Origin: Shigella phage SFPH2
Sequence record: MH464253
DNA length: 40,387 nt
Strand: one strand, 5' to 3'
The notes beneath the pieces were generated by a model. The model saw only the letters and a list, made by a program, of their open reading frames with translations. It had not been told where the DNA came from and ran no database searches. This document shows positions 1 to 40,387 of this stretch, piece by piece. Numbering within the stretch: position 1 is the first letter of the stretch; the number at the start of each line of letters is the position of its first letter. The position numbers were made by a program, and so were the translations under genes.

Positions 1-909
1 GCGACCTTTAGCCCAGTACCCACCACCAACCACCCCGGTCCACGGCTTAGGTGGCACGACGCAGGGCTGGTAAACTGGGGCAATTCCTGCCAGAGAGAAA
101 CCACGCTGAGCCATCTTCTTGACCCAGAAGTCAGACAGGTGGACCATCTCAACGTCTGCCGCAGCGTTGCCTGCACCGTAGCGCTTAAGCTCGACCAGTT
201 GTGAGGACTGGATGACCAGCTCAAGCATCTTGATGCCTACGTGAACAGCCTCGGTCGGACTCCAAGTCCCCCACGCGTCAGCCAGTTGTCCCTGCTCAAG
301 CATAGACGCCTCGACTGCCTGCATGTAGGCCTTCTTGTAGCTTGCGCCAGCGCGTTTCTTCAGGTTCTCCGCGATGGTCTTCTTGAAGTGCTCCTGCTCC
401 TGCTCACGGATGCGACCAAAGCGGATTTCATCTTCCAGTGTGCGACCTATCGCGGATGCCATAGGAGTTATCGGAATGCCTTCAGGCTTGACCAGCTTGC
501 TGAGGATGACTTTCAGTATGATGACCGCAGCAGACTCCGCAGAGATTAGCAGAGAGCGGTCTTTGACAGCCTTCTCGTCAGTGCTCATCATGGTAAACGC
601 CACGCTTGGACGTGAGGTCGAGGACTTACCGTCCGGGCCTTCATGCCACTCACGCACAGCCTTAGCGATGGTCGGAACCAGTGTTTGCATCAGAGGTTTA
701 GCGACCTGATTGTCTGCCAGCTCCCCGCGCTCGGTCTGACGCTCAAGGTTCTTAATGAAACGTCGCTCACCTTCAGTGTATGCCTCATGCTCTAGCTGGA
801 GCTGTTTGACTGCGAGGTCTTGCCCGTAGTGGTCAGCCAGTACGTTGAAAGGTTCGATTGCATTCGACACATCAGAGAAGTCGTGTTTGTCAATTGAGAT
901 GACGCTCAT
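1..909 (-). CDS. gp1: DNA-directed RNA polymerase, N-terminal part (gene cut by window boundary; continues at 40387..38615)
   Basis: ATG at 909..907 with AAGGA 9 nt upstream; translation MSVISIDKHDFSD...FGRIREQEQEHFKK...PCVVPPKPWTGVVGGGYWAKGR is colinear with T7 RNAP N-terminus; frame runs off position 1 with a complete codon. Confidence 0.93.
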   Translation of the reverse strand, partial: MSVISIDKHDFSDVSNAIEPFNVLADHYGQDLAVKQLQLEHEAYTEGERRFIKNLERQTERGELADNQVAKPLMQTLVPTIAKAVREWHEGPDGKSSTSRPSVAFTMMSTDEKAVKDRSLLISAESAAVIILKVILSKLVKPEGIPITPMASAIGRTLEDEIRFGRIREQEQEHFKKTIAENLKKRAGASYKKAYMQAVEASMLEQGQLADAWGTWSPTEAVHVGIKMLELVIQSSQLVELKRYGAGNAAADVEMVHLSDFWVKKMAQRGFSLAGIAPVYQPCVVPPKPWTGVVGGGYWAKGR

Positions 910-984
910 ACTTAAAGTCCTTATAACTGTTGTCTTATCACTAAAGTCTTTCACTTCAGTCCTGACTTAGAGTCTTTCGACCTT

Positions 985-1007
985 GAGTCCTTTAGTGATA
1001 GTTTAGT
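985..1007 (-). promoter_or_regulatory. Phage-promoter-like element upstream of gene 1 (ACTAAACTATCACTAAAGGACTC); variant of the consensus, also half of a 10-bp inverted repeat
   Basis: 17 of 19 upstream positions match the phage promoter consensus but TATAGGG is replaced by TAAAGGA; ATCACTAAAG (plus 944-953 region) pairs with CTTTAGTGAT (988-997). Confidence 0.35.
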
Positions 1008-1011
1008 CCAA

Positions 1012-1338
1012 CTACTTGCATATCAGTGGGTTAGCGTGTAGATGACTGAAGTCACCGCGTGTAGTGTGCTTGATGTCTGACCGCTGGTCTATTGCCCTCC
1101 AGCCGGAGACCAGAAGTTTACCATCGTCAGTGCGAGGTCGTCCACCATACGCCAGACACATCAGCTCGGCCTTATGGCCCTCGGCCCGGAGTCTTGCTTG
1201 CAGCACCCGGTCGCGCTCCTGCTGTTGACGAATGGTGTGACTTGAGGTCCCGTGACGGTAGCCTGTAGCCAGTGCTGAAAGCAGGTTAAGGTCTGCGTCC
1301 AGCGCATGAACCAGATTAATCCCATATGACTTGCTCAT
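1012..1338 (-). CDS. Hypothetical protein, 108 aa, between kinase and RNAP
   Basis: Minus-strand ORF with ATG start overlapping upstream stop (TAATG); no recognisable homolog from memory. Confidence 0.45.
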   Translation of the reverse strand: MSKSYGINLVHALDADLNLLSALATGYRHGTSSHTIRQQQERDRVLQARLRAEGHKAELMCLAYGGRPRTDDGKLLVSGWRAIDQRSDIKHTTRGDFSHLHANPLICK

Positions 1339-1688: not shown

Positions 1689-2423
1689 TCACTCAGCTAT
1701 TGCGTTCAGCCTGCCTTGCAGCTCGTCTTGATGGTCTGCCTGAGTCCAAGACACTGGGTCTGTGATTATCAGTCGCCCGTTGTTATCAACCATCACATTA
1801 GCGCGGTGTGTGTCGAATGATGCCAGCCCGTAGAAGAAACTGTTAATCTTCTTAGCAGTCTGCGCAAGGTCCTTGATATACTGGGCCTCGACGTGTGCAA
1901 ACTCAGCCCGTGCGTCTTGGTCCAGCCACCAGCTCAGGGCCTCAGACGGTTGCTCGCAATGGTCTATTATCGCGTTGACTACACGCCACGACACGTTTAA
2001 GACTCGCTGCTCGTAGGTCTCACCATCCCGGCAGTAGTCACCGCCGATGTCATTCAGTGAGCGGTACTTATCCATAGCCACCATGTAGGCCCTGCTGAAG
2101 CGCTTGACCAGATGGATGACCGGAAGCCCAGCCAGACCCTCGTTCTCTCGGCAGAAGGCCGCATATGCAGCGCCTGAGTCATCCTTCTTAAAGCCTACCT
2201 TGATTGCATATCCCGGCAGGTCCTCATGCTCAAAGGCAGCGGCGAAATGTCCAAGGCCTAACAGCTTGTAACCATGTTCCCGCGCCAGTATCTCAAAGGC
2301 TCCCCAGCGAGGTTGACCAGCTATGCCAGCGCTAGAGTCTTCAATCTTGTAGCACTCCTCGCAGATGATAGCGTGGAGCTGAGACATCAGGTTATTCATG
2401 ATTACTTTATCGTGTGCGTTCAT
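1689..2423 (-). CDS. gp0.7: Serine/threonine protein kinase (T7 gp0.7-type kinase domain only)
   Basis: LGLGHFAAAF...AIKVGFKKDDSGAAYAAFCR...ITDPVS blocks match T7 gp0.7 kinase domain; ATG at 2423 (MNAHDK) has AAGGAAAC SD, the track start at 2456 is TTG; about 115 residues shorter than T7 gp0.7. Confidence 0.85.
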   Translation of the reverse strand: MNAHDKVIMNNLMSQLHAIICEECYKIEDSSAGIAGQPRWGAFEILAREHGYKLLGLGHFAAAFEHEDLPGYAIKVGFKKDDSGAAYAAFCRENEGLAGLPVIHLVKRFSRAYMVAMDKYRSLNDIGGDYCRDGETYEQRVLNVSWRVVNAIIDHCEQPSEALSWWLDQDARAEFAHVEAQYIKDLAQTAKKINSFFYGLASFDTHRANVMVDNNGRLIITDPVSWTQADHQDELQGRLNAIAE

Positions 2424-2454
2424 TACGTGTGTTTCCTTCTTGTGGTTAAGTGAC

Positions 2455-2495
2455 AATCAGTCAGGCCACCAGCATGGATGACCTGTAGTCTGGCA
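2455..2495 (-). promoter_or_regulatory. Conserved RNA hairpin A (candidate RNase III processing site)
   Basis: Minus-strand transcript CAGGUCAUCCA..UGGUGGCCUG, stem closed by G-U wobbles; member of a 5-copy family. Confidence 0.5.
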
Positions 2496-3264: not shown

Positions 3265-3717
3265 TTACACCACCTCCCAGAACCGACCTTCAGCATCTTT
3301 CGTGAAGCATTCGCCCTTTGGTGCCTCGACTTGCTGGAATGCCCCGTTCAGACGTGTGGTCTTGTAGCCATCCAGACCTTTGCAGAACATCAGGCCAGCC
3401 GTGTGAGTCTGAGACTTGTAGACCATCACGCAGTCTTGCTCAAAGTCATTGCAGGCCAGCCGCGCAACGTTGATAGCCTGAGCTTTGGACTCACAGCGCA
3501 CACGATATGTTCTCTCCTCAGTGGCGACCTCTTGCCCTTCCTCGCGGTAGCATCCTGTAAGCCCAGTGCATTCGAGCACACCGTAGTAGTCTGGCTCAGC
3601 TTGTAGCAGTGCCTTAAGGTCTAACTGACGGCCCATGTTCACTATGTCTGACAGTCCAGCACGAGCGGCTGACACGAGCACATAGAAGACGTTAGCTGGT
3701 TCGTTAGTGTAAATCAT
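3265..3717 (-). CDS. gp0.3: S-adenosyl-L-methionine hydrolase/lyase (T3 gene 0.3-type SAMase, anti-restriction)
   Basis: MIYTNEPANVFYVLVSA...TGCYRE...VRC.SKAQAINVARLACN..EQDCVMVYKSQTHTAGL matches T3 SAMase as recalled, near-identical length (150 aa). Confidence 0.88.
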   Translation of the reverse strand: MIYTNEPANVFYVLVSAARAGLSDIVNMGRQLDLKALLQAEPDYYGVLECTGLTGCYREEGQEVATEERTYRVRCESKAQAINVARLACNDFEQDCVMVYKSQTHTAGLMFCKGLDGYKTTRLNGAFQQVEAPKGECFTKDAEGRFWEVV

Positions 3718-3931
3718 GATGTGTATCCTTTAAGTGTGAGTGATTATCATAAAGAGACCTGAGGCGCTCATCTTGAGCCTGACCCGCAGTAGCCAACAAG
3801 TCTCTTGAGTTAATCGCTTACTATCGGCGCACATTAAGAGTTATCCAGATTGTTAAAGAGCATTCGCTTGGCTGTCGTCGCCTCGCTAGCCTGTTTCAGT
3901 GTTAGGCTTCACTGTCGTTTCGATGTGGTTC

Positions 3932-3961
3932 ATACTACTTTAAGTCGTTACTGCTTGTCAA
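3932..3961 (-). promoter_or_regulatory. Candidate host sigma70 promoter (TTGACA-N18-TAGTAT), rightward/sense
   Basis: Hexamers read on minus strand upstream of the early genes. Confidence 0.3.
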
Positions 3962-4076
3962 CTACTTTCTTTCTGTCGGTTGCCTGTTTTTCGTATGTCT
4001 TACAGGCTGACTACTTAACCGGACCGACCCGGCGTCTTCACTATCCGGTTGTTGCCGTGTCGTGTTGACGGAAGCT

Positions 4077-4105
4077 ATTAAACCAAAAGTCAGACCTACT
4101 GTCAA
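4077..4105 (-). promoter_or_regulatory. Candidate host sigma70 early promoter (TTGACA-N17-TTTAAT), rightward/sense
   Basis: Perfect -35 and 17-bp spacer on minus strand, ~360 bp upstream of SAMase. Confidence 0.4.
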
Positions 4106-4168
4106 CAACTATTTATCATGGTAATTTATACAGTAGTCCAATGACTATATAATAACGACTACAGATGA

Positions 4169-4196
4169 TTGACTTTAAGTCTGGACTGTGGATAAT
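4169..4196 (+). promoter_or_regulatory. Candidate sigma70 promoter on the antisense strand (TTGACT-N16-GATAAT)
   Basis: TTGACTttaagtctggactgtgGATAAT on plus strand; closely resembles T7 A1 core (TTGACTtaaagtct...GATACT) but points opposite to all genes. Confidence 0.4.
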
Positions 4197-4199
4197 GAG

Positions 4200-4852
4200 A
4201 GTCCAGTTAGCAAGACACTAACTAATAACCCTAGTCAGCTATGGTCTCTGACTGCTAAACGGACCGGATGTGATAACCTGTGAGTCTAGACCTTAGGACT
4301 CTGATAAACTGAAGGTCGACATGGTGTCTATTGACTGTAGGTAGTGAGACTGTAGGTAGTCCCGTTACCAATGGATTGACTGTAGGTAGTGAGACTGAAG
4401 GTGATGACTCTAGGCTGATACAGATAGCGACTCAGGGACACAACATATAGTCCCGACCAATCGTCCCTACCACAAGATATAGGCCCTATCGGTCCAGACT
4501 TCGGGTCGACTTCGGGTCAAAGACTTGAGGTTTAGACCTTCGGTCTAGGGGTAGGGCCTTTGGTCGAGACTTAAAGAGGGCCTATGGGGAGACTTGAGGT
4601 TCTTGAACTGTGAGATGTGGTCTCAAACTTTTGGTCCAAAACTCATCGTCCCTACTGTAGGCCTCAGCCACTGTAGGTCAAGGACCGTAGGTCAGGCGAC
4701 ACTAGGGTAGACCAGTGAGTAGGATGACCCTAAGTGAGCTTCTCTTAAGGTGTTACCTAAAGTCCTTGACTACAGTAGCTAAGGTCAGTAGAGTAGCGTC
4801 AGCTATGAACTGACCTTAGGTCCGTCTTTCGTTGATTGTTACCATGATGGCG
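4200..4852. repeat. Repeat-rich non-coding terminal region (expected location of physical genome ends / terminal repeat / concatemer junction)
   Basis: No ORF of 60 codons or more on the coding strand; 22-bp perfect direct repeat TTGACTGTAGGTAGTGAGACTG at 4331-4352 and 4376-4397; recurring CTGTAGG, ATCGTCCCTAC, AGACTTGAGG, CTTCGGGTC motifs. Confidence 0.6.
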
Positions 4853-5185: not shown

Positions 5186-5208
5186 CTTCCCTATAGTGAT
5201 AGTTAAGT
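5186..5208 (-). promoter_or_regulatory. Phage RNAP promoter (phiOR position): ACTTAACTATCACTATAGGGAAG
   Basis: Full consensus match between terminase large subunit and gene 19.5. Confidence 0.85.
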
Positions 5209-5301: not shown

Positions 5302-7065
5302 TTAGTGGAACTTGACGTAGGACCCTAAGCCTAAGTCATCATCTGTATTGAACTGGACCCGGACCCCATTGTCCCAATAGTCAGTCTCGATGGACTTAAA
5401 GCCTTTCCGAGGGTCTTCCATCTGTTCCTCAAGCCACTCTTCTGTTACTTCACGCTGTCCCTTGACGGCATCCTTCGCCATAGACTCTACGAAGAACTGT
5501 ACACCGATAGCCAGAGCATCAAGTCGGTCGTCATGAGCCAAGGCTCCACGTTCACGGCTGATACGGGTCATCTGGTAGAACAGAGAGTAGATAGGGTTAC
5601 GGACACCATCCTTATCGGCAGCAGTCTGGTAGTCAGACACAATGGTCGAGGAGTTCACGATGAGTCGGTGAGACCCCATGATAGGCTCCAGAACGTCGCA
5701 GATGCGCAGCTCCTTCTGACCCTTACTCTTGACCTCGGTAACTGCTGCCGGGTGAATACGGGCCGCTACAGGCTTGAAGAGTTCGAGATACATACCGTCA
5801 CCGAAGTTACCTTCAATCACGTACTCGTTGACCTTCCACTTACGACCAATCTTAGCCAGAGCCTCCAGCGTAGAGTCCTCATAGCCACCACGCATACCAC
5901 CCGCTTCCATCACGAAGATGTAGCCGTTGAGCTGGTACAGAACCGCATACCCGGTCTCATCCTTACCTCGACCACTTGGGTCAATGACCAGAATCTTCTG
6001 GGTGTACGAACTGAAGGCAGAACCTACAGTCTGATACGTATGGTAGGAATCGCCCATGAGTCCCACGTTAGGAACGTCATCACGCTTGTTCTGAAGGTTC
6101 GGCAGCCACTGGTATACCATAGGGCTAGACTCAGGGTCCAAGTCCGCTACGATAAGGTCACGCAGCTTCAGAGGGTATTTCTCGGCGTCCCCTAGGTTGG
6201 GGTTCAGCATGAACTGTAGGGCGAAGCCCGCCTTACCATAAGACAGCTCACGCTCCTTCAGGTCCTCATCGTCGAAGCGAACCTCATCGGTCGGTCTCCA
6301 GTAGTATCCCTCAGGGTCAGACTCCAGCTCGGCCTGAAGCATAGGAGCCAGACGGTCTCCGTAAGACTTCCAGTCCTTCTCATCACGTGGGTAGCGGGCA
6401 GGCCAGATGGTAGTTGAGTAACCACGACCCTCAAGCTGTCGATACAGGGTCATCTCGGTCTGAGGAGTACCCAGATAGATAACCGTACCACCCGGCTTCA
6501 GGATTGCGTCGAACTCTTTCACCAGCTCTGACAGTCTGTCACGTGCCGCCTGAGTAGCGGAGTTACCGGGGACCTCTACGTCATCGGCAATCAGGATGTC
6601 AGCACGGCTACCAGTTAACTGACCAGTGATACCAACGGACTTAACCGAGGGAGAGTGGTCAGGCTTGGCAGGCCCTACGTCAAAGCTGATTACTGCGTCT
6701 CGCTGCCCCTGCTTAGGCTTCAACTCTTGGAGCTGAGGCATGAGGTCGATGATACGCTTGATGAAGATTGAGTTCGCATCGGCTCGTTCCTTTGAGGCCG
6801 ACACAATCATGAACTTCAAGTCCGGGTTATTCCATAGCTTCCAGACCACGAAGGCACACGTAATGAAGGACTTCCCGATACCACGGAATGCCTGCAAGAT
6901 GAAGCGCCTGTTGTCCCCAGCCGATAGCTTCTTCGCCATGTCAATCTGACAGCGAGTCGGAACAGGAAGTGACAGAGCTTTCCACAGAACGAACAGGAAG
7001 AACACGAAGTCTGACTTCATACGGGCAGTCATAAGCGCCTGACGCGCTGCTAAGTCTTGACTCAA
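5302..7065 (-). CDS. gp19: Terminase large subunit (DNA maturase B)
   Basis: 587 aa; Walker A-like GIGKS, colinear with T7 gp19 (586 aa). Confidence 0.95.
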
Positions 7066-7511
7066 GGTTTCACCTCCTTCTCTTGCTGCAAGGCCCTGAT
7101 GGTCCCCTGCAAGGCCTTAATCCATTCGTCGCCTTTCAGTCCGATGGCGATAAGACGCTTAGCATCTCGCTCGTCAAGGTCGGCGTAGCCATCAACGAGG
7201 CATCGACCGTCACTCTGGACCGTTCCACTGGTAGGCTGGACTCTGATGCGCAGCCGCTTGTTATCGCGGTTAAGGTCAGCAATAATCCTATCAGTAGAGC
7301 CTTCCAGCTCGGACATCTTGTCTTGGTATTCTTTTGCAATACGTGACACCTCTCGCTGTACCGAAGTGCGCGTTCTGTCCTCTGCCTGTAGTTTAGTGAT
7401 GTACTCATCGTTTACCTTCGCCTCCCACTTTGTGTCCGCTACCCAGTAGCCTGAACAGAACAGGAGTCCTGCCACCAACCACGGGAGCGCTTTACGTAAA
7501 AGTTCGAGCAT
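7062..7511 (-). CDS. gp18.5: i-spanin (Rz-like, gp18.5)
   Basis: [19 protein letters not shown]-terminal TMD, ...[21 protein letters not shown]...DERDAKR matches T7 gp18.5. Confidence 0.9.
7136..7408 (-). CDS. gp18.7: o-spanin (Rz1-like lipoprotein) embedded in +1 frame of gp18.5; true start probably internal (TTG before KNTKTR)
   Basis: Embedded ORF with signal-like [17 protein letters not shown] followed by Cys (lipobox-like). Confidence 0.55.
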   Translation of the reverse strand: MSTSLNYRQRTERALRYSERCHVLQKNTKTRCPSWKALLIGLLLTLTAITSGCASESSLPVERSRVTVDASLMATPTLTSEMLSVLSPSD

Positions 7512-7560
7512 AGTTGCCCTCCTGTTTTAAAAGAATTCACGTAGAGTCACCTACGTTAGT

Positions 7561-7615
7561 GTTAATCATGAAGGCCACCCACTACATGTAGTAGATGACC
7601 TTGAGTCTAACACTT
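7561..7615 (-). promoter_or_regulatory. Conserved RNA hairpin C (R18.5-position candidate RNase III site)
   Basis: GGUCAUCUACUAC-AU-GUAGUGGGUGGCC, 13-bp stem with three G-U wobbles; flanks AGACUCAAGG / CCUUCAUGAUUAAC. Confidence 0.55.
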
Positions 7616-7877
7616 ACTGTACACCATACCCGGTGTCATTGTCCTCAGTAGCTGAGAGCACCTTATCGTACTCCCTGTTCAACGCCTCCATGTCAGCTAA
7701 CTGTTTCTCATCCACAGACACCTTGCTGAGTACAAAGTTGTGGCGAGCTAGCAGCTTCTCGATAGCGTTGTAAAGCTGAGGTGAACGCTTGGTGTCATCC
7801 CGCAGGTCTTGCAGCATGAGTCTAGCACGTTCAGTGTCCAGCATTAACAGGAACTTCTCTAAGTCCATCTGCGTCAT
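7614..7877 (-). CDS. gp18: Terminase small subunit (DNA maturase A)
   Basis: 87 aa; ...RSPQLYNAIEKLLARHN.VLSK matches T7 gp18. Confidence 0.9.
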   Translation of the reverse strand: MTQMDLEKFLLMLDTERARLMLQDLRDDTKRSPQLYNAIEKLLARHNFVLSKVSVDEKQLADMEALNREYDKVLSATEDNDTGYGVQ

Positions 7878-8068
7878 GTCTTACCTCCGCTCTTAATCGT
7901 CTTGTAAATCAGTACGCCAATCTGCACCACGGTATACGCGATAGCAGCGACGTAGAACCATTCGTTGAGTGTTAACCCAAAGAAGAACCGACTGGCACCA
8001 TCAGCCGCAGCGGTCCCGACGATAGGCGAGGCTTTGAGGACCTCATTCTTGAAGTCGAACTCAATCAT
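7874..8068 (-). CDS. gp17.5: Holin (class II, gp17.5)
   Basis: ...FFFGLTLNEWFYVAAIAYTVVQIG... near-identical to T7 gp17.5 core. Confidence 0.92.
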   Translation of the reverse strand: MIEFDFKNEVLKASPIVGTAAADGASRFFFGLTLNEWFYVAAIAYTVVQIGVLIYKTIKSGGKT

Positions 8069-8114
8069 ACTACCTCCATTGTTAAACGGGTCGTCCTTGA
8101 CCCAAAGTTATCGG

Positions 8115-10622
<2,508 letters not shown>

Positions 10623-10662
10623 TTAAGTGTTGAATTAAATGGGAGCCTATGGTAGCACTCCC

Positions 10663-10685
10663 GTTTCCTATAGTGATAGTTTAGT
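10663..10685 (-). promoter_or_regulatory. Phage RNAP promoter (phi17 position): ACTAAACTATCACTATAGGAAAC
   Basis: Consensus match overlapping gp16 stop, upstream of tail fibre. Confidence 0.85.
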
Positions 10686-27678: not shown

Positions 27679-27884
27679 AGACAGCCTCCGTGTTGATTCA
27701 GGAACTTGGTGCCAGCAGCGGTAATCTCCCACGCACCGTTGTTACGCCCATCCATAGACAGGCAGCTTAGATGTCCACGACTCGCAGCCTCAGCCACAAG
27801 TGCAGCGTTGTTGCGCACATAGTTGGACTGAAAGGTCTTCGGGCAGGACTTAAGGGCCGCTAGGACCCGTAAGTATTCACTCAT
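27675..27884 (-). CDS. gp5.7: gp5.7 protein
   Basis: 69 aa; MSEYLRVLAALKSCPKTFQSNYVRNNAALVAEAASRGH.SCL...GRN.GAWEITA.GT.FL...GGC near-identical to T7 gp5.7. Confidence 0.92.
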   Translation of the reverse strand: MSEYLRVLAALKSCPKTFQSNYVRNNAALVAEAASRGHLSCLSMDGRNNGAWEITAAGTKFLNQHGGCL

Positions 27885-28165: not shown

Positions 28166-28170
28166 TAGTG

Positions 28171-30712: not shown

Positions 30713-30724
30713 AATGTCTCCTAT

Positions 30725-30768
30725 AGTCTAATCATAAAGGCCACTCGAAGTGAATGGCCTTGAGTCTA
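30725..30768 (-). promoter_or_regulatory. Conserved RNA hairpin E directly downstream of promoter (transcript 5' stem-loop / candidate RNase III site)
   Basis: GGCCAUUC-ACUUC-GAGUGGCC with G-U wobble, flanks AGACUCAAGG / CCUUUAUGAUUAG as in hairpins C and D. Confidence 0.5.
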
Positions 30769-30788
30769 TCCTACAGTGATAGTTAAGC
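30766..30788 (-). promoter_or_regulatory. Phage RNAP promoter variant upstream of DNA polymerase: CTTAACTATCACTGTAGGATAGA
   Basis: Consensus with one substitution (TGTAGG for TATAGG). Confidence 0.7.
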
Positions 30789-31316
30789 CTTAGGTGGAGT
30801 CATGTCCGGGACCAATGGCTCTATGGTCTCCATAGGTTCAACTACAGGACTCGCGCCAGATGATACGCGCACTTCTGGGTAGCTTTGTTCCATGCTACTG
30901 ACTGGAACCGCTGGTCCTTCAGGATGTTGCTCAACACTGTAGCTTCGTGGTGATACCACTTCGCCAGCGAAAGGTGATACTTGGACTTTAACTTCTCGCA
31001 CAACCTCTTTAACATCTTGGTGCTCCTCGAATGGGTAATAGGACAGAACGTCACCTTCCAGCTTGAACCCTACGAGGCCCATCTGGTCGAGACGCTGAGT
31101 GATTTGATACTTCGTGCTGTCAACCTCTTGGTCTCCCAAGTTGCCACGCAGCGTCCCAATGTCAATCGACCCTTGGACCATAGCCGTAGAGATGAACAGC
31201 AGCGCCCTGCCCAGAGTTCGACCAGTGCAGCGAGAGGTGAAGACTTCAAGGCCCTCCTTCGGGCCAAGCTCAAGTTGCAATTCGGTCAGGGTCTTACCGT
31301 TGATTAAGTTTCGCAT
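30783..31316 (-). CDS. Hypothetical protein (177 aa) between primase-helicase and DNA polymerase; Pro/Val/Ser-rich C-terminal tail
   Basis: ATG at 31316 (MRNLINGK) with AGGAGA SD; track start at 31382 is inside gene 4. Confidence 0.6.
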   Translation of the reverse strand: MRNLINGKTLTELQLELGPKEGLEVFTSRCTGRTLGRALLFISTAMVQGSIDIGTLRGNLGDQEVDSTKYQITQRLDQMGLVGFKLEGDVLSYYPFEEHQDVKEVVREVKVQVSPFAGEVVSPRSYSVEQHPEGPAVPVSSMEQSYPEVRVSSGASPVVEPMETIEPLVPDMTPPKA

Positions 31317-31360
31317 TATCCACTCTCCTCTTAAGTGCTGCTTCAAGCCTAGCCTCAGGA

Positions 31361-33067
<1,707 letters not shown>

Positions 33068-33114
33068 TCACTCCTTAGTCAATAGTGCGAACAAAGGGAC
33101 AAGACTCATGGTCT

Positions 33115-33137
33115 CATCCCTAAGGTGATAGTTTAGC
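33115..33137 (-). promoter_or_regulatory. Phage RNAP promoter variant upstream of primase-helicase: GCTAAACTATCACCTTAGGGATG
   Basis: Consensus with 2 substitutions; transcript starts with GGGAUGAGAC-CAUGA-GUCUUGUCCC stem-loop. Confidence 0.65.
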
Positions 33138-33345
33138 TGAAGAAGCCTTTCAGTTGCTCGGCTTTCTTGTCAAGACCTTTGGCACGTAGGCCAGCGTCCA
33201 GAGACTTGATGCGCAGACTATCCGCTTCCGCAGCAGCCGCTTCCGCACCTTTAGCCGCAGCAGATGCGACTTTTCGTTCCACACTCGCAGCACGAGCATA
33301 GCCACGCACAACCAGACGACCCAGAAATTCAATAAACTTAATCAT
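33133..33345 (-). CDS. Hypothetical protein (70 aa), Ala-rich
   Basis: ATG with AAGGAG SD 7 nt upstream, immediately after amidase gene. Confidence 0.55.
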   Translation of the reverse strand: MIKFIEFLGRLVVRGYARAASVERKVASAAAKGAEAAAAEADSLRIKSLDAGLRAKGLDKKAEQLKGFFS

Positions 33346-33359
33346 GTTAGTGCTCCTTG

Positions 33360-33818
33360 TTAGCCTCGGTCGGAAGTGACCAGTTCGTTAGTATTCAGCC
33401 AGCGCTGCAAGTCAAAACTTGGGCAAGCCTTTGGTGCTACATCGTGGTGGGCCTTGATGTCTGCCTGAGGGTACAGTGCCTTCAGTTCAGCCAGCTTGTT
33501 TCGTAGAGCGCTCATCTGAGCAGGAGTGAAGTTGGCTTCAAACTTGCCCTTGGCGTCAATTCCACCTACAAGGCAGACGCCTACTGACCGGGAGTTCCAG
33601 TCCTTAACGTGGGACCCTACTACATCGACCGGGCGGCCTTCTTCCACAGTGCCATCACGCTTGATGACGAAGTGATAGCCTACGTCCAGCCAGCCCTGCT
33701 GCTTGTGCCACATGCGGATAGTGTCTACCCCGATGTCCTGAGACGGTTTGGTCGCACTACAATGGACGAAGATTGCGTCAGTTACTGTACGCGGTTTGAA
33801 CTGAACCTTACTTACCAT
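33360..33818 (-). CDS. gp3.5: N-acetylmuramoyl-L-alanine amidase (T7 lysozyme, RNAP inhibitor)
   Basis: 152 aa; VQFK.R..TDAIFVHCSATKPSQ..GV..IR.WHK.QGWLDVGYHF.IKRDGTVE.GR, GVCLVGGID.KGKF.ANFTPAQM, HH.VAPKACPSFDL.RW...NELVTSDRG match T7 gp3.5. Confidence 0.97.
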   Translation of the reverse strand: MVSKVQFKPRTVTDAIFVHCSATKPSQDIGVDTIRMWHKQQGWLDVGYHFVIKRDGTVEEGRPVDVVGSHVKDWNSRSVGVCLVGGIDAKGKFEANFTPAQMSALRNKLAELKALYPQADIKAHHDVAPKACPSFDLQRWLNTNELVTSDRG

Positions 33819-34032
33819 TGTACACCACCAGCTCGACGATTACGAGATTCAGGTGAGACTTGAAGCGCTCGCTAACGGTCGTGTGCATCTGGAGGCGCTT
33901 ATGGTTGAAGACATGCGAGTTGCTAATCTTCACGTACACTTCGTCCGGTCGACCATGCACGATGAACGCGTAGCCCACCGGGATTTTATCAATGGTCAGT
34001 CGCTCGCGGACTACCTGCACTTCTTTAGTCAT
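33808..34032 (-). CDS. Hypothetical protein (74 aa) inserted between endonuclease I and amidase
   Basis: ATG overlapping gp3 stop with AAGGAG SD 7 nt upstream; no equivalent gene recalled in T7. Confidence 0.5.
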   Translation of the reverse strand: MTKEVQVVRERLTIDKIPVGYAFIVHGRPDEVYVKISNSHVFNHKRLQMHTTVSERFKSHLNLVIVELVVYNGK

Positions 34033-34481
34033 TTCTTAGCTCCTTTCTTCGGGATGAGTATACCTGAGGGCAGACGCACAGTCGCCTCTTTCAGCCACTC
34101 AACCGGGATAAACTTGTCGGCAAACTTAAAGCCGTTCTTTTCGCACCATGCGCCATACGTGGTCGGGGACCCTTTGTACAGCTTGGAGCGGGAGGACGAG
34201 AACACGAACCGGATGTCCAGCTCAGGGTGTTGCTCGCGCACCAGCATATGCTTCTTACGGTCCTCACTGTCGAAGATACCTTTGGTCTCGACGATGATTC
34301 CGTTCGGAAGGATGAAGTCTGGTGTGTACTTGTGGTCGGAAGCCGGAATCACATAGTTGATATAATGGCTTTCGTACTCCGCTTTGACGCCGTTCTGCTC
34401 CAGCCACTGCTGGTTCTTGGCCTCAAGTCCAGAGCGGTAGGCACCCACAGAGTGCCCCCGTTTTGGTGTCCATGCAGCCAC
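34029..34481 (-). CDS. gp3: Endonuclease I (Holliday-junction resolvase)
   Basis: 150 aa; FRSGLE, YVIPAS.H.YTPDF.LPNGI.VETKG, DRKKH.L.REQHPELDIR.VFSSSR.KLYKGSPT.YG..CEK.G.KFADK.IP.EW.KE match T7 gp3. Confidence 0.96.
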   Translation of the reverse strand: MAAWTPKRGHSVGAYRSGLEAKNQQWLEQNGVKAEYESHYINYVIPASDHKYTPDFILPNGIIVETKGIFDSEDRKKHMLVREQHPELDIRFVFSSSRSKLYKGSPTTYGAWCEKNGFKFADKFIPVEWLKEATVRLPSGILIPKKGAKK

Positions 34482-34483
34482 GA

Positions 34484-35182
34484 TTAGAAGTCGTAATCGC
34501 CACCGGACTCAGAGTCATCACCACCCTCGGCATCTTCACCGAAGTCGTCAGACCCGAAGTCACCGTCAGTAGACGCTTTGTAGCCACCGGAGCCGATGTC
34601 TTCATCGTCACCCCAGCCACCATCGCCACCAGTGCCATCGCCGGACCACTCTTTCAGTTCGACCAGCAGGCAGGACTCCAGTTGCAGCTTCACGCTAGCA
34701 CCAGTCGCAGCGTTCCACTTGAACGGCAGGACTTTGAACTTGACCTTCAGCTTAGACCCTGAGCCAATATTCGGGACGTCACGGATGAGTTTAGCATCGG
34801 TGTCGTAGAACCGTAATACGATAGGCTCGGACTTGCCGTCTTTCAAGTAGGACGCAAAGCATTTGAACTTCAGGGTAACAGTGCCGTCACCGTTCTCAAT
34901 CCACGGCATGTCGCCTTCACGTGGTTCGATAGGCTTCTTGCCACGCTGAACCTGAGGCGGGTTCTTCTCGTGGTCTGCGAGTGCTTTTGCATACGCATCG
35001 TCGTGAATCTTCTGCAAGACATCAATCATCTTGCGGACCTTCGGGTCGCTCAGGTCGAATGTCAGGTTGACTTTATGCTCACCGCGCTCGTTGTACTTGG
35101 TGTCTGCTTTGTTAAGCCATGCGTAAGGCTCAACGATACCAGCTACCGGAGTGGTGAAAGTCTTCAGTTGCTCTTTAGCCAT
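34484..35182 (-). CDS. gp2.5: Single-stranded DNA-binding protein
   Basis: 232 aa (same as T7 gp2.5); EPYA, ANPP.V.RGKKP..P.EGDMP...NGDGT.T.KFKC.AS, IGSGSKLKVK..L.P.KWN...GASVKLQLES..LVEL, acidic C-tail ending DF. Confidence 0.96.
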   Translation of the reverse strand: MAKEQLKTFTTPVAGIVEPYAWLNKADTKYNERGEHKVNLTFDLSDPKVRKMIDVLQKIHDDAYAKALADHEKNPPQVQRGKKPIEPREGDMPWIENGDGTVTLKFKCFASYLKDGKSEPIVLRFYDTDAKLIRDVPNIGSGSKLKVKFKVLPFKWNAATGASVKLQLESCLLVELKEWSGDGTGGDGGWGDDEDIGSGGYKASTDGDFGSDDFGEDAEGGDDSESGGDYDF

Positions 35183-35211
35183 CGGTGTAAATCTCCTAGT
35201 TAAAGTTAAGG

Positions 35212-35234
35212 TGTTCCTAAAGTGATAGTTTAGT
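35212..35234 (-). promoter_or_regulatory. Phage RNAP promoter variant (phi2.5 position): ACTAAACTATCACTTTAGGAACA
   Basis: Consensus with one substitution, overlapping gp2 stop, upstream of SSB. Confidence 0.7.
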
Positions 35235-35394
35235 CGTGCAGCTCAGGTCGGATGCGGCCTACCACGAAACCAGCATCTTCATACTCCTGAGACTTTAGGG
35301 TCGCCTCGTCCAGAGACTTGGCGTATACCGGGACCTCAAAGGACTGAACGCGACCCTCAAGCTCCACGATGTACTTCTTTTCTTCAAGGCTCAT
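35230..35394 (-). CDS. gp2: Inhibitor of host RNA polymerase (T7 gp2-like)
   Basis: [34 protein letters not shown] matches T7 gp2 [35 protein letters not shown]; ATG at 35394 preferred over track GTG at 35412. Confidence 0.85.
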
Positions 35395-35472
35395 AGCCCT
35401 CTCCCCTTCCACAGGTTATACATTTCGAGATAGTCTGTGTTACCTGTCCTCTCGAACATCATCTCGCACCAT

Positions 35473-35780
35473 TCACTCGGAGTCATGACTACCAGCCTTA
35501 CTCTGAGCTACCATACGAGCACCGAAGAACTCGACTTTCTCTGCATCGTAAAGACCATCATCTTTAGCGCCAGCTTTACGCAGACCCAAGGTCCGCTGGG
35601 CGGCTCGACGCCATATTGCCTTGAACGCATTGCCTTCCGCGAAGTTCATACCAAGAGCTTCGATGATGTCGTTGCACTCAGCGATGTACTCAGGTCGACC
35701 GGGGGTAGTGGTGCTCTTTATGTGGACCTGATAGTAGTCAGCAGAACCGCCAGTGTAGATAGGCTGTTCATTTTAGTCAT
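35473..35780 (-). pseudogene. Apparent frameshifted gene: SD-ATG (35780) opens a 20-codon frame, while ~100 protein-like codons continue in the adjacent frame to TGA at 35473
   Basis: AAGGAGG 5 nt before ATG ACT AAA ATG...TAA; other frame reads NEQPIYTGGSADYYQVHIK...AIWRRAAQRTLGLRKAG...SHDSE; one extra A in the A4 run (plus 35771-35774) would fuse them. Confidence 0.4.
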
Positions 35781-36033
35781 TGACCACCTCCTTCACAAAC
35801 TCAATGAACAGACGAACGCGAGGCCACTTGGTGTAGACCACAGGTACGCTGGTCTCACGCTTCTGGCGAGCCTCTTCAGCTTTGCCCGGAGTAATCAGAG
35901 CGAAGACTGTAGGTGACAGCTTAATGGCCTTCCCGAAGTAGCCCAGCTTCTCGTTGCGCTTAATGCAAGCGAACGGGTTGTGGGACAGATGGAAGGTATT
36001 GGAATAACGGTTGAACATTAAGTTCTTAAACAT
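35773..36033 (-). CDS. Hypothetical protein (86 aa, gene 1.6 position)
   Basis: ATG with AAGGAGG SD 7 nt upstream. Confidence 0.65.
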   Translation of the reverse strand: MFKNLMFNRYSNTFHLSHNPFACIKRNEKLGYFGKAIKLSPTVFALITPGKAEEARQKRETSVPVVYTKWPRVRLFIEFVKEVVND

Positions 36034-36061
36034 GGTCGGCCTCCTTAGGTCGAAGTTATTG

Positions 36062-36084
36062 TTGTCCTATAGTGATAGCTTAGT
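36062..36084 (-). promoter_or_regulatory. Phage RNAP promoter (phi1.5/1.6 position): CTAAGCTATCACTATAGGACAAC
   Basis: Consensus match after ligase and early terminator. Confidence 0.8.
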
Positions 36085-36172
36085 CGTCTAGGCACTCCCC
36101 TACCAGCCACGTAAGGCCGTAGACCAGCAGGCATGACAACAAGAAAACTAATGTAATATAGAGCATAAGCAT
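36080..36172 (-). CDS. Small hydrophobic ORF (30 aa, gene 1.4 position)
   Basis: GGAGGA SD 8 nt before ATG; MLMLYITLVFLLSCLLVYGLTWLVGECLDD; below track cutoff. Confidence 0.35.
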   Translation of the reverse strand: MLMLYITLVFLLSCLLVYGLTWLVGECLDD

Positions 36173-36193
36173 GAGTATGGTCCTCCAGAATGC

Positions 36194-36224
36194 GAAAAGA
36201 CCCAGCAGTACGAAGACCACTGGG
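36194..36224 (-). terminator. Candidate intrinsic early terminator (TE position, after ligase)
   Basis: CCCAGUGG-ucuucgua-CUGCUGGG stem (with G-U pairs) followed by UCUUUUCG. Confidence 0.55.
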
Positions 36225-36235
36225 TTGACGTTTAG

Positions 36236-37276
36236 TTAACTCTTAACGGTTGGATTGTCTTCAGTTCCACGCCAGCACTTGAAGCTGGGATGACGAAGGG
36301 ATCCATCTGGGAACCGCTCCATGAAGAGGACTTCACACTGCCAGCCGTTGAAGAACTCCTCACCTTCTGGGTACTCTTTTACCGCTGCGGTGAACTCGTC
36401 CTTCTGTGTTTCAGTCAGACCACAGGCGTTAACCACCATGCCATCCTCCAGCAGAACCTCGAAGCCGATGACCTTACCTTCGTTGGCCTTACCCGGAGTC
36501 CCCCACACGAGGCCACACACGGTCCCGTCTACGGTCTCCTCAGGCTTCATCTTCCACATGCCTGACTTCTTGCCACGCTTGTACTTACCCAGCGGGTCCT
36601 TGACTACCAGACCCTCGTGTCCTTCCAGACGCTTCTCTTCGTACAGGGAGTTGAGCGACTCAAGGTCATAGACCGTGTGTGACTCAGACAGAACCCAGTC
36701 GATTTCCGGGAAGTATTTCTGGAGGAGAGGGACGATAGCTTCGGCCTTCAGGCGAGTGACGCTATGGATAGGACCTTCGGCTTTCGGGTCGTTGATGACG
36801 TTAAGGTCGATGACCCCGTAGACGATTACCTTGATGTGTTCTGGGTCCAGTCTGAATGGTGTAGTCTTTGACTTCAGGTCCCAGTCACCATCGTGGAAGT
36901 CGTAGTTCTTAGACTTGACGTACTTCGTTCGGATAAGACCGGATGATGTGTTGAAGTCCACACCCTTGACCATCACCTCGCCATCAATCATCAGGCCAGA
37001 TACTTCATGTCCTGCTTGCTTCAGGAACCATCGCCAGTCGGACGCACGGCACGCTCCGATGTCCTGACCAACTGTTGACAAATGGTCTAAGGCCGGAAGC
37101 GTCTTAGACTCACGGCTTAACCATTCAGTTCGCCCATCAGGGAAGACAGGAATATTCAACCGCACACCGTCATACTTCACTTCAGCTTCCAGCGACCCGG
37201 CAGCTTCCAGTGCTTTCTTAACGCCAGACTCAGAGTAATCTACAGCGCGGTGCGGGTTAGTTTTGATAGTTGTCAT
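36236..37276 (-). CDS. gp1.3: ATP-dependent DNA ligase
   Basis: 346 aa; IKTNP..AV...ES..KKAL, adenylation motif KYDGVR, MIDGEVMVKGVDFNTSSGL.RTK, FPEI.W, EGHEGLVVKDP...YKRGKKSG.WKMKPE, DGSLRHPSF match T7 ligase. Confidence 0.96.
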   Translation of the reverse strand: MTTIKTNPHRAVDYSESGVKKALEAAGSLEAEVKYDGVRLNIPVFPDGRTEWLSRESKTLPALDHLSTVGQDIGACRASDWRWFLKQAGHEVSGLMIDGEVMVKGVDFNTSSGLIRTKYVKSKNYDFHDGDWDLKSKTTPFRLDPEHIKVIVYGVIDLNVINDPKAEGPIHSVTRLKAEAIVPLLQKYFPEIDWVLSESHTVYDLESLNSLYEEKRLEGHEGLVVKDPLGKYKRGKKSGMWKMKPEETVDGTVCGLVWGTPGKANEGKVIGFEVLLEDGMVVNACGLTETQKDEFTAAVKEYPEGEEFFNGWQCEVLFMERFPDGSLRHPSFKCWRGTEDNPTVKS

Positions 37277-37293
37277 CGTTAATGTCTCCAGAA

Positions 37294-37581
37294 TTAAAGG
37301 AATCGACCAGTGTAGTCGTTGAACTGTTTGTTAAACCAAGTGGCAACCGCTACGGTCTGCACATCTTCGTCATGAATATTCGGGTACTCCGTGAAGTCCT
37401 TCTCGATGAGGACCTCTTTCGTATGGCTGTGGACTATAACCGCCCGGACGCAGTGCCTGTTCATCATTGGGTCGAACCAAGTGCTTACCACTGCGTTATA
37501 GTCGGTCTCGGACTGCCAGTTGTGAATAGCTCTGCGGAGGGTGTTCAGGTTTCCACTATGCGCTCTTGAGAACATGCCCAT
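37294..37581 (-). CDS. gp1.2: gp1.2-like protein (host dGTPase inhibitor in T7)
   Basis: 95 aa; SGNL, HDEDV and W..W features similar to recalled T7 gp1.2; synteny after gene 1.1. Confidence 0.7.
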   Translation of the reverse strand: MGMFSRAHSGNLNTLRRAIHNWQSETDYNAVVSTWFDPMMNRHCVRAVIVHSHTKEVLIEKDFTEYPNIHDEDVQTVAVATWFNKQFNDYTGRFL

Positions 37582-37584
37582 GTT

Positions 37585-37764
37585 TTACGCTCCTACGAAA
37601 TACTTCTCTTGGTTAACCAGCGAGTCTTTACCTTCAGCGTTACGGAAAGCACCCTTGACACCACCGCCACGCTTGGTCTTGTTCAGCTTGCGTCCCTTCG
37701 GAATGTAGCCTTCAGTCTGCTGACGTTCACGGATGCGCTCGAAGTTGATAGTGTTCTGATACAT
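37585..37764 (-). CDS. gp1.1: gp1.1-like small basic protein (59 aa)
   Basis: MYQNTINFERIRERQQTEGYIPKGRKLNKTKRGGG...; KGRKLNKTKR identical to T7 gp1.1 motif; AGGAG SD; below track cutoff. Confidence 0.75.
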   Translation of the reverse strand: MYQNTINFERIRERQQTEGYIPKGRKLNKTKRGGGVKGAFRNAEGKDSLVNQEKYFVGA

Positions 37765-37792
37765 GGTGTAGCTCCTGAGTGAATTGGTTAGG

Positions 37793-37838
37793 GTTAATCA
37801 TGAAGGCCACGACTTTGAGTCATGACCTTGAGTCTAAT
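37793..37838 (-). promoter_or_regulatory. Conserved RNA hairpin D (R1.1-position candidate RNase III site) at 5' end of phi1.1 transcript
   Basis: AAGGUCAUGACU-caa-AGUCGUGGCCUU: 12-bp stem with two G-U wobbles, 3-nt loop. Confidence 0.55.
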
Positions 37839-37857
37839 CCTATAGTGATAGTTTAGA
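37835..37857 (-). promoter_or_regulatory. Phage RNAP promoter (phi1.1 position): CTAAACTATCACTATAGGATTAG
   Basis: Consensus match upstream of gene 1.1, overlapping the stop of the 156-aa ORF. Confidence 0.85.
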
Positions 37858-38323
37858 TGACGACGCGAGGTCTTACCCGAACGAATGCCTGAAGCGCTCG
37901 CTCTCGTTCGGCCTCTTCTCCGTATACTTTAACTTGCTCATAGTCGTACTGGATTCGACCGTCGATGTCGCTAAGTCGATACTCAAAATCCTTCTGAGAG
38001 CCATCCGTGTGGTGCTGGTGGATAGTCAGCTCCCGCTCGGTCCGACTCGTGGTGAAGTGAGTCACTGTCTTGCCACATGGCCCCGGCCCGGTCTTGAACT
38101 CAGTCGGCTGATAGAGGCCATTGAACAGCGCCCTGAACTTCAGGCCTACCATACGCTTCACAGTCACAGGCTCTGGCGGCGTTAAGCGTCTGCGCTCGGA
38201 TTCAGCAAGTTTATCCTTCAGCCTCTCGTTGTCCTTGTCACGGACCTCTACGGCTCGCTCCAAGTATGCCGCCTTCATGCTCAACTCTTTGATTTGCGCT
38301 TTAAGTTTTGACTTACCGAACAT
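37853..38323 (-). CDS. Hypothetical protein (156 aa), predicted N-terminal coiled coil, inserted between gene 1 and phi1.1
   Basis: ATG with GAGG SD; KLKAQIKELSMKAAYLERAVEVRDKDNERLKDKLAESERRRL heptad-like N-terminus. Confidence 0.6.
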   Translation of the reverse strand: MFGKSKLKAQIKELSMKAAYLERAVEVRDKDNERLKDKLAESERRRLTPPEPVTVKRMVGLKFRALFNGLYQPTEFKTGPGPCGKTVTHFTTSRTERELTIHQHHTDGSQKDFEYRLSDIDGRIQYDYEQVKVYGEEAERERALQAFVRVRPRVVI

Positions 38324-38401
38324 ATGGTTAACCTCTTCTGCGTTGAATTAAAGTGTACACTGCTAAGAAGGCCAGCCATAAGGCCAGCCACTGAAGGTCC
38401 G

Positions 38402-38602
38402 TCATTTCGTCACAGCCTCGGTCAAGGCCTGTTCGTGTGACTTCTCAACCTGCTGCACCAGCCATTTGAATGGGACGTTAAGCTGCTTTGACATCTCGGT
38501 TGGAATGACCGTGGTCTTTACCAGACCCTTGCCATTATGTTCGGCCACGGTCACGATTTGAGTACCGCCTTTAACGCCAGTTTGCTTGTGTGCGAATTTC
38601 AT
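38402..38602 (-). CDS. Hypothetical protein (66 aa) immediately after RNAP
   Basis: ATG-start ORF 10 nt after RNAP stop. Confidence 0.55.
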   Translation of the reverse strand: MKFAHKQTGVKGGTQIVTVAEHNGKGLVKTTVIPTEMSKQLNVPFKWLVQQVEKSHEQALTEAVTK

Positions 38603-38614
38603 GTAGGTGCCTCC

Positions 38615-40387
38615 TTAGGCGAATGCAAAGTCAGATAGCAGAATGTCTTCGATGTTCAGTTTACCGCGCTTCGGCAGCTCAGGCAATTTGTCGCGCTGGC
38701 TCTCATGAAGCTGGTCCTCGAACTGCTCGTAGAAGTCTTGCAGAACATCGTTGTCTCGGTAGGTCTCGACCATCGTCTCACGGACTCCCTTGAACAGGAA
38801 CTCAGCGTCTGCCGGGATGGTCCCAAAGCTGTCGTGAATCACCGCGAAGGACATCACGCCATACTTGCGGTGGGTATGGACTACAGTCTTCCTCAGGTGA
38901 CTGCCATCCTGTGAGTGTACAAAGTTAGGGCTGATACCGGACTCCTGCTTGTGCTTGTCCAGCTCTTTCTTCGACCCTTTGTTGACTGTCGGTTGCAGGT
39001 TGAACGACCCAAGGAACAGGAGGTTCAGCCGTGTGGTGTCTTTCTTGCGGTATTCCTGCCAGACCGGGAACCCATCAGGTGTTACCCAGTGTACCGGAAG
39101 GCAAGGCTTCAGGATTTCGCCAGTCTTCTTGTCCTTCACTTCAGCAGCCAGTAGCTTGGCAGCGCCTTGAAGCCACTTCATCGCGTCAACCGCAGCAACT
39201 ACGGTCACACTCACGGCGTCCCATATCATCTTAGCCATGAAGCGAGACGCTTGGCTTGGGTCGGTGAACATTGCGCCTTTACCGCTGTCAATCGCTGGCA
39301 TCACGGTGTCCTCAAACACTTGGTCCGCGAACCCGTATTCTTTCGACCCGTAGGCCAGAGTCATGACCGAGCGTTTAGTGACCGAGCGTGACATCCCGTA
39401 GGTCAGCCACTGTCGAGCCAGCTCACGGGTCCCAAGGACCAGACGCTCAGTAATCTCGCCTGTCTTCTTGTCCTCAAAGGTCTTCATTTCGTTGTCGCTC
39501 CCGTTGACCAGCAGTTCCTTGAGCTGTTCTTCCACCCGGTCGGACACAATGCGGTAGATGTCTTGGACCTTCCCGCTTGGCGTCAGGTTTACCGCATGTC
39601 CACCAACGTGGTCACGGAGCATAGCGCTGAAGTGCTGAATCCCGGAGCAGGACCCATCGAACGCGATAGGCAGTGAGCAGGAGTAACTCAGCCCGTGGTG
39701 CATGACTCCAGCATACTCAAAGCAGAACGCTAGGAAGCAGAACGGAGAGTCTAACCGGCCCCACCAATCAATGCTGTCCATCGGATTCTTTGCTGCTGAG
39801 AGGATGTTGTCGTGGTTGTCTTCGACCCACTTGATGCGCTCCTCAAAGGTGACTTTATCGACACCCGCGCAGTTTGCACCATGTACCTTCAGCCATTTGA
39901 AGCCGTCCGCACCGATTGGTTTACCGACCGCCAGAGTCAGCAGGCCCTTCTGCATATCGTTGCCTTGAGGGTTGAACATCGGGACAGCGTACACTCGGCC
40001 CCGCCAGTCCATGTTGTACGGGAACCAGATGGCCTTAAACTGAGAGAACTTGTTAGCCTGTGAGACGATGAAGCTCAGGGACAAGCGGCGCGACTGTCGG
40101 GCCTTCTCGCGTCGATAGATGCCAGCCGCAGACTTCTTCCAAGCCTTAAGCTCCTCCTCGGTCTCACCCGCATAGTCTTCAGGCTTCAGTGGCTCCATCT
40201 GAGGGATGTCAGCGATAGGCGTGTTATTCAGCTTCTCGACCATGTTCACCACTTCCAGCACCTTCTTGTTTACCTTCCAAGGAGTCTGCTGAATGATGTT
40301 CACTGCCTCTACCACTTCAGGCATGTACACGTCTTCGTAGCGCTGGACCGCAGCCTTAGACCCTAAGCGAATCAGTGGTAGAGGTCT
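38615..40387 (-). CDS. gp1: DNA-directed RNA polymerase, C-terminal part (continuation of 909..1 across the circular junction)
   Basis: Frame open to window edge; ...RYEDVYMPEV, FPYNMDWRGRVYAV.MFNPQGNDM.KGLLTLA, SPFCFLAFCFEYAGV.HHGLSY, GIQHFSAMLRD, SVMTLAYGSKE, HDSFGT, ends DFAFA as T7 RNAP. Confidence 0.97.
   Translation of the reverse strand, partial: RPLPLIRLGSKAAVQRYEDVYMPEVVEAVNIIQQTPWKVNKKVLEVVNMVEKLNNTPIADIPQMEPLKPEDYAGETEEELKAWKKSAAGIYRREKARQSRRLSLSFIVSQANKFSQFKAIWFPYNMDWRGRVYAVPMFNPQGNDMQKGLLTLAVGKPIGADGFKWLKVHGANCAGVDKVTFEERIKWVEDNHDNILSAAKNPMDSIDWWGRLDSPFCFLAFCFEYAGVMHHGLSYSCSLPIAFDGSCSGIQHFSAMLRDHVGGHAVNLTPSGKVQDIYRIVSDRVEEQLKELLVNGSDNEMKTFEDKKTGEITERLVLGTRELARQWLTYGMSRSVTKRSVMTLAYGSKEYGFADQVFEDTVMPAIDSGKGAMFTDPSQASRFMAKMIWDAVSVTVVAAVDAMKWLQGAAKLLAAEVKDKKTGEILKPCLPVHWVTPDGFPVWQEYRKKDTTRLNLLFLGSFNLQPTVNKGSKKELDKHKQESGISPNFVHSQDGSHLRKTVVHTHRKYGVMSFAVIHDSFGTIPADAEFLFKGVRETMVETYRDNDVLQDFYEQFEDQLHESQRDKLPELPKRGKLNIEDILLSDFAFA

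Follow-up and report, generated by a model that had tools for sequence, protein, structure and literature searches.

The window analysed here is the whole 40,387-nt sequence record MH464253 of Shigella phage SFPH2, whose two ends fall within gene 1, the gene for a single-subunit RNA polymerase (RNAP). Our analysis indicates that the record very probably represents a K1F-like unit-length genome that was reverse-complemented and opened arbitrarily inside gene 1, with fixed virion ends at positions 4615 and 4426 and with the terminal repeat collapsed to a single copy. That the record boundary splits gene 1 is an artefact of book-keeping, not a feature of the phage's biology. An initial annotation, prepared from the sequence alone, had described the window as one complete, circularly permuted genome of a T7-type phage, in which gene 1 is divided by the boundary, the full T7 gene set from 0.3 to 19.5 is present once, and the true ends lie within the non-coding interval 3718-4852.

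Gene 1 across the record ends

The record begins gcgaccttt… and closes …ggtagaggtct, and gene 1 occupies both ends of the minus strand:

1..909, minus strand: 5′ part of gene 1 (single-subunit RNAP), with ATG at 909-907 and codons 1-303, running off the window at base 1
38615..40387, minus strand: 3′ part of gene 1, with codons 304-893 (40387..38618) and the stop codon TAA at 38617..38615

Translation across the joined ends (40387 to 1) yielded one open minus-strand frame of 912 codons, with the junction in codon phase 0. Neither a stop codon nor a phase break, two of the outcomes that the initial annotation had named as contrary to its claim, appeared on joining, and the junction peptide reads ...PWTGVVGGGYWAKGR/RPLPLIRLGSKAAVQRYEDVYMPEV, just as it had been written there. 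Gene 1 proper encodes 893 amino acids, from the ATG at 909 (N-terminus MSVISIDKHD…) to an end at AFA-TAA (38615), with the record break lying precisely at the boundary of codons 303 and 304.

An in-phase join would by itself arise by chance in one case out of three. A fortuitous join is excluded because colinearity is gapless across the junction, not because of phase alone. The joined RNAP aligns over residues 1-893 with residues 1-883 of T7 RNAP (PDB 1aro, 1262 bits), as the initial annotation had anticipated; the alignment is free of gaps at the junction, where R303/R304 correspond to T7 R291/R292. At the nucleotide level, a query comprising 700 nt from each side of the junction aligned in one 1400-nt piece to the RNAP genes of more than 10 relatives, with 96.4% identity to Enterobacter phage EP1, and the protein shares 98.9% amino acid identity with SH5 RNAP over 893 residues. 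Because the 1400-nt query aligns 1400:1400 nt to relatives' RNAP genes, no base has been lost or doubled at the join. The exact 38-nt junction sequence had no match among IMG/VR viral contigs.

T7-like virion DNA is linear with short exact repeats at its ends, and its concatemers hold a single repeat copy per junction. A rotated record can arise from such DNA in a few steps. With a short exact direct repeat at each end of linear virion DNA, replication produces head-to-tail concatemers with one repeat copy at each junction; shotgun assemblers similarly collapse both copies into one, such that the contig closes on itself, and both the base at which it is opened and its orientation are arbitrary. 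In this record the opening fell between RNAP codons 303 and 304, and the sequence runs in the reverse of the conventional map. Most related GenBank records are likewise rotated, with the junction region in mid-record in the great majority of matches, and the merging of terminal repeats by assemblers, which leaves the first base arbitrary, has been described with T7 as an example (PhageTerm paper, PMC5557969). We infer that the assembler produced the rotation, which is a well-known consequence of assembling terminally redundant DNA and carries no biological meaning. No terminal self-overlap of at least 8 nt, as a left-over assembler k-mer would leave, was found between the window ends. The phage collection held no identical record: identity reached at most ~96% in the three segments searched, and no match opened at the same position.

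Completeness and gene content

Taken as its reverse complement with 4615 as the first base, the window is colinear with SH5 positions 1..39641, and nearly all SH5 genes have exactly one counterpart each, in conserved order. All homologues lie on the minus strand and follow the SH5/K1F arrangement of early, DNA metabolism and structural-lysis-packaging genes. Genes shared with SH5 include those for RNAP, ligase, gp2, gp2.5, endonuclease I, amidase, primase-helicase, DNA polymerase, gp5.5, gp5.7, exonuclease, gp6.5, gp6.7, gp7, portal (100%), scaffold, capsid, tail tube A/B, internal proteins 13-16, tail fibre (96.8%), holin, small terminase (100%), Rz/Rz1, large terminase (99.1% amino acid identity, SH5 gp45) and gp19.5 (100%). 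Gene 7.3 has a counterpart only in K1F in the comparison with these two phages, and SH5 early gp1-gp4, gp14, gp27 and the HNH ORF before gene 4 have none in the window. The core and last genes of the map are placed as follows:

7062..38602, minus strand: genes 1.05 to 18.5/18.7, one copy each in canonical order, ligase through Rz/Rz1
5302..7065, minus strand: gene 19, large terminase subunit; reading frame open from 7065, with a homology-supported ATG at 7032 giving 576 amino acids
4853..5011, minus strand: gene 19.5, 52 amino acids, last gene of the map, 100% identical to SH5 gp46/gp19.5

The window contains no second copy of the terminal repeat and no internal duplication, only promoter-sized repeats of at most 69 nt, and tRNA and Rfam scans of it returned nothing. 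Overall, colinearity with SH5 and K1F and the lack of redundancy show the window to be one complete, non-redundant phage genome, as first proposed. The claim of a full T7 gene set present once stands for the conserved core, each gene of which occurs in single copy, but not for the accessory genes, which form a K1F/T3-type mosaic.

This mosaic raises the alternative that the contig is incomplete or chimeric, with sequence missing or duplicated or two phages mis-joined, and with an in-frame join arising by chance. Positions ~1000-3700 do resemble Shigella phage SFP21A, Enterobacter phage EP1 and Cronobacter phage GW1, whereas the rest of the genome resembles SH4, SH5 and Dev2. Yet the junction aligns over its full 1400 nt with many independent RNAP genes and the protein is full length relative to T7 RNAP; SH5 colinearity is complete, with no core gene missing or doubled. 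Furthermore, a mosaic early region is usual in this phage group, and in EP1 and SFP21A the same early block adjoins gene 19 and the junction region without interruption, so the arrangement exists in other isolates. We consider a defective or chimeric contig highly unlikely.

Predicted virion ends

The reading of the record as a complete, rotated genome places the virion ends in the interval between the last and first genes of the map, which proved to be non-coding as the initial annotation had stated: it is bounded by the start of gene 0.3 at 3717 and the end of gene 19.5 at 4853. Both predicted ends fall inside this interval by homology to SH5 and K1F, in accord with the earlier placement. 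Its features are:

3718..4852, minus strand: non-coding interval from gene 19.5 to gene 0.3, comprising the concatemer junction and early control region
4426..4615, minus strand: predicted direct terminal repeat, present as a single copy; 190 bp by SH5, 189 bp by K1F
4616..4822, minus strand: conserved 207-nt non-coding block directly upstream of the predicted left-end cut site; 99.0% identical to SH5, 97.1% to K1F

The termini of SH4 and SH5 were determined by run-off Sanger sequencing outward on virion DNA until the signal dropped, revealing a 190 bp repeat (PMC4925675), and the SH5 record annotates, at each end, a direct terminal repeat of 191 nt. For K1F, a terminal repeat of 179 bp has been cited (PMC4925675), and its record has an exact 178-nt repeat at both ends, starting with the same TCTCACAGTTCAAGAACCTCAAGTCTCCCC. 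After re-orientation, the window opens with 190 nt that match SH5 1-191 as well as SH5 39642-39832 and closes with 207 nt that match SH5 39433-39641, immediately ahead of the right repeat of that phage. The forward primer of the SH4/SH5 run-off experiments (CTGCTGTTCTACTTGCTGCT; PMC4925675) matches exactly inside gene 19.5, and the reverse primer site lies at ~4240-4259 with one mismatch, as read by eye.

Alignment of three reconstructed concatemer junctions, from the window, SH5 and K1F, revealed homology at both repeat boundaries. The left boundary, GAGACCACA/TCTCACAG (also GAGACCACA/TCTCACAGTTCAAGAACCTCAAGTCTCCCC), is essentially invariant among the three phages, maps to window position 4615, and lies where more than 85 nt in a row show full or almost full identity across the three. 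At the right boundary, CTGAGTCnC(T)/ATCTGTAT, the sequence, including the motif CTGAGTCnCTATCTGTAT, is likewise conserved in the three phages; this boundary maps to 4426 by SH5 or 4427 by K1F. The virion ends would lie at these homologous positions: we predict a left end at base 4615 of the minus strand, beginning TCTCACAGTTCAAG… (TCTCACAG…), and a right end formed by a second repeat copy ending at 4426 (by SH5) or 4427 (by K1F). The window holds the terminal repeat only once, just as a concatemer junction or an assembly with collapsed repeats would, and the packaged DNA is therefore predicted to measure ~40,577 bp (40,387 + 190).

The 207-nt segment at 4616-4822 is the best-conserved non-coding block of the genome. 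In contrast, the adjoining terminal repeat is only 81.5% (SH5) and 71.7% (K1F) identical, and K1F genes average ~80-85%. The block contains a palindrome, TTTTGGACCAAAA (4629-4641), and an inverted repeat (4677-4692/4755-4770), and is a candidate packaging or concatemer-processing signal; were this borne out, the near-invariant sequence would constitute a signal common to the whole genus. Just inside the left end, past the terminal repeat, two copies of a 28-nt direct repeat (ATTGACTGTAGGTAGTGAGACTGTAGGT, read on the plus strand) lie 45 nt apart at 4330-4402, a placement similar to that of the short repeated elements beside the left repeat of T7.

Several considerations weigh against the proposed reading. 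The end positions are predicted by homology; the interior of the repeat shares no more than 72-82% identity with K1F and SH5, so its length may differ by a few bases, and the two references already disagree, at 189 versus 190. A deliberate rotation of a linear record would also give a sequence identical to that produced by an assembler. Fixed ends located elsewhere, for example with a markedly different repeat length within 3718-4852, would be compatible with the divergent repeat interior and with the variation reported in related phages, namely repeats of 179, 183 and 190 bp in Kayfunavirus and of 160-242 bp in other T7-like phages (PMC4925675). Against such a displacement stand the left boundary within its (near-)identical stretch and the conserved right motif, and we regard it as quite unlikely; a shift of a few bases is possible, a large one unlikely. 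Providencia phage EPr2 (OM256482.1) annotates four 179-nt direct terminal repeats, at 1-179, 501-679, 40583-40761 and 41083-41261. This deposit looks like an over-extended or duplicated end region, and the odd arrangement of four copies led us not to use it as an end reference.

A more radical alternative takes the circular permutation literally: the virion DNA itself would be circularly permuted and terminally redundant, packaged by a headful mechanism as in P22 or T4, with no unique ends. The window closes on itself without an end repeat, as a headful assembly also would. However, identity to the SH5 terminase is 99.1% for the large and 100% for the small subunit, and SH5 is a phage with fixed ends read directly from virion DNA; the packaging chemistry is therefore expected to be the same. 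SH5 and K1F also retain both repeat boundaries and the 207-nt block before the cut site, and, to our knowledge, every member of the Studiervirinae characterised so far has short direct terminal repeats at fixed ends. The headful (pac) class is marked by a headful-type terminase and no fixed ends, and the window does not show this combination. Because both terminase subunits are 99-100% identical to their SH5 homologues and the cut-site contexts are conserved, fixed virion ends are expected, and headful packaging seems extremely improbable. It is hardly credible that the virion ends lie away from the SH5/K1F-homologous sites, for instance through headful or variable-end packaging despite a T7-type terminase; such a phage would be the first member of the Studiervirinae without fixed short terminal repeats. 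A genus-wide packaging or concatemer-processing role of the block at 4616-4822 would be a more modest departure, and a likelier one. The term circularly permuted consequently applies to the record but not to the virion DNA.

The preferred reading of a rotated, reverse-complemented unit-length genome has direct consequences for curation. The record should be reverse-complemented and started at 4615, with the 190-bp repeat appended at the right end (~40,577 bp); the annotation should show gene 1 as a single 893-residue protein instead of two fragments. If the record is left uncorrected, automated annotation will truncate or lose the RNAP, and genome comparisons will show a false rearrangement.

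Promoters, early region and relation to known phages

A promoter search found nine matches to the phage-promoter core against 0.97 expected. A position weight matrix yielded 12 predicted phage-RNAP promoters, all on the coding strand, with the consensus CTAAACTATCACTATAGGRA, and no comparable sites on the other strand. Two of the phage promoters and both predicted host promoters are listed here:

5186..5208, minus strand: predicted phage-RNAP promoter between genes 19 and 19.5, in the T7 phiOR position (ACTTAACTATCACTATAGGGAAG)
985..1007, minus strand: predicted phage-type promoter directly upstream of gene 1 (ACTAAACTATCACTAAAGGACTC)
4105..4077, minus strand: predicted host sigma-70-type early promoter, TTGACA-17-TTTAAT, read directly from the sequence
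3961..3932, minus strand: predicted host sigma-70-type early promoter, TTGACA-18-TAGTAT, from a sigma-70 consensus scan

The promoter upstream of gene 1 is also present in SH5 (~2716) and K1F (~2484), whereas T7 has no phage promoter directly upstream of its RNAP gene, and its position suggests that gene 1 may be positively autoregulated. No phiOL-like phage promoter was found by the promoter scan between the terminal repeat and gene 0.3. The two predicted sigma-70-type promoters (3932..4105) upstream of gene 0.3 look strong and correspond to the A1-A3 early promoters of T7; the scan, whose rule demands A as the second base of the -10 hexamer, reported one of the two.

The early region and two accessory ORFs distinguish the window from its closest relatives:

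3265..3717, minus strand: gene 0.3, first gene of the map, encoding a 150-residue T3-type S-adenosylmethionine (SAM) lyase and not T7 Ocr (PF23780, E 1.2e-39)
1689..2456, minus strand: gene 0.7-like protein kinase, 255 amino acids (phrog_15752, E 5.6e-115)
28171-28653, minus strand: PD-(D/E)XK endonuclease-like ORF (PF11645, E 1e-10), directly following the DNA polymerase gene; not in SH5/K1F
27229-27732, minus strand: phrog_4382 ORF between genes 5.7 and 6; not in SH5/K1F

Gene 0.3 is followed by a DUF7300 protein, a 115-residue helix-turn-helix (HTH) ORF and the 0.7-like kinase. Over most of its length the early region (1012-3717, minus strand) lacks nucleotide similarity to SH5 and K1F, and its identity to Shigella SFP21A, Enterobacter EP1 and Cronobacter GW1 amounts to 91-96%. 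The segment spanning the genome ends and early genes is closest to SFP21A (95.8%), EP1 and GW1. This mosaic structure points to recombination between Kayfunavirus lineages. The presence of two extra ORFs here and the absence of the SH5 HNH ORF form a pattern typical of mobile-nuclease turnover.

By its sequence, the phage is a lytic K1F-like podophage of the family Autographiviridae, subfamily Studiervirinae, genus Kayfunavirus, with Citrobacter SH4/SH5 and Cronobacter Dev2 as its nearest relatives. Of the hallmarks of the Studiervirinae, the phage has its own single-subunit T7-type RNAP, a ~40-kb genome with conserved gene order on one strand, and predicted phage promoters on the coding strand; as for short fixed terminal repeats, the window has one repeat copy with boundaries homologous to the mapped ends of SH5 and to those of K1F. 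Genera are delimited at approximately 70% or more nucleotide similarity across the genome, according to the International Committee on Taxonomy of Viruses (ICTV), and species at 95% or more nucleotide identity over the whole genome. Identity multiplied by coverage was 0.855 to SH5 and 0.662 to K1F, and the best matches are all classified as Kayfunavirus, which places the phage within this genus; the value of 0.855 to SH5 lies below the species boundary and places it outside species Kayfunavirus SH4. We regard the phage as a new, mosaic member of a well-known genus, an ordinary Kayfunavirus whose early region is mosaic. The initial description as a T7-type phage was correct at the level of the T7 family, with the detail now being a Kayfunavirus with a T3-type SAM-lyase gene 0.3.

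Nucleotide identity to SH4, SH5 and Dev2 is ~95% over 97% of the 24-kb segment 7000-31000. SH5 shares the gene order from 1 to 19.5, most proteins at 95-100% identity, the promoter consensus, homologous repeat boundaries with a length of ~190 bp, and a similar G+C content (52.4% here versus 52.5-52.6%). The two genomes differ in that SH5 has early gp1-gp4 where the window encodes the SAM lyase, DUF7300 protein, HTH ORF and 0.7-like kinase, and in that only SH5 has the HNH ORF before gene 4, whereas only the window has the ORFs at 28171-28653 and 27229-27732. The SH5 record starts at the true left end and includes both repeats, whereas the present record is rotated and reverse-complemented with one repeat.

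K1F, the type species of Kayfunavirus, has a colinear map, an identical first 30 nt of the genome, 97% identity over the 207 nt before the repeat, and the conserved promoter upstream of gene 1. In contrast to the window, K1F possesses an ocr-like 0.3, an HNH/intein-type interruption of the DNA polymerase, a repeat of 178-179 bp, and an endosialidase tail protein of 1064 residues versus 832 here, the two being alike only at the N-terminus.

T7 and T3 belong to other genera (Teseptimavirus and Teetrevirus), and nucleotide similarity to them is below the reach of megablast over most of the genome. Nonetheless, the RNAP aligns over its full length with that of T7, the gene order 0.3...19.5 is the same, the layout of a short direct terminal repeat followed by host promoters and early genes is shared, and gene 0.3 is the SAM lyase of T3 type. 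The promoter consensus is CTAAACTATCACTATAGGRA here versus TAATACGACTCACTATAGGGAGA in T7/T3, and the terminal repeat of ~190 bp compares with 160 bp in T7 and ~230 bp in T3.

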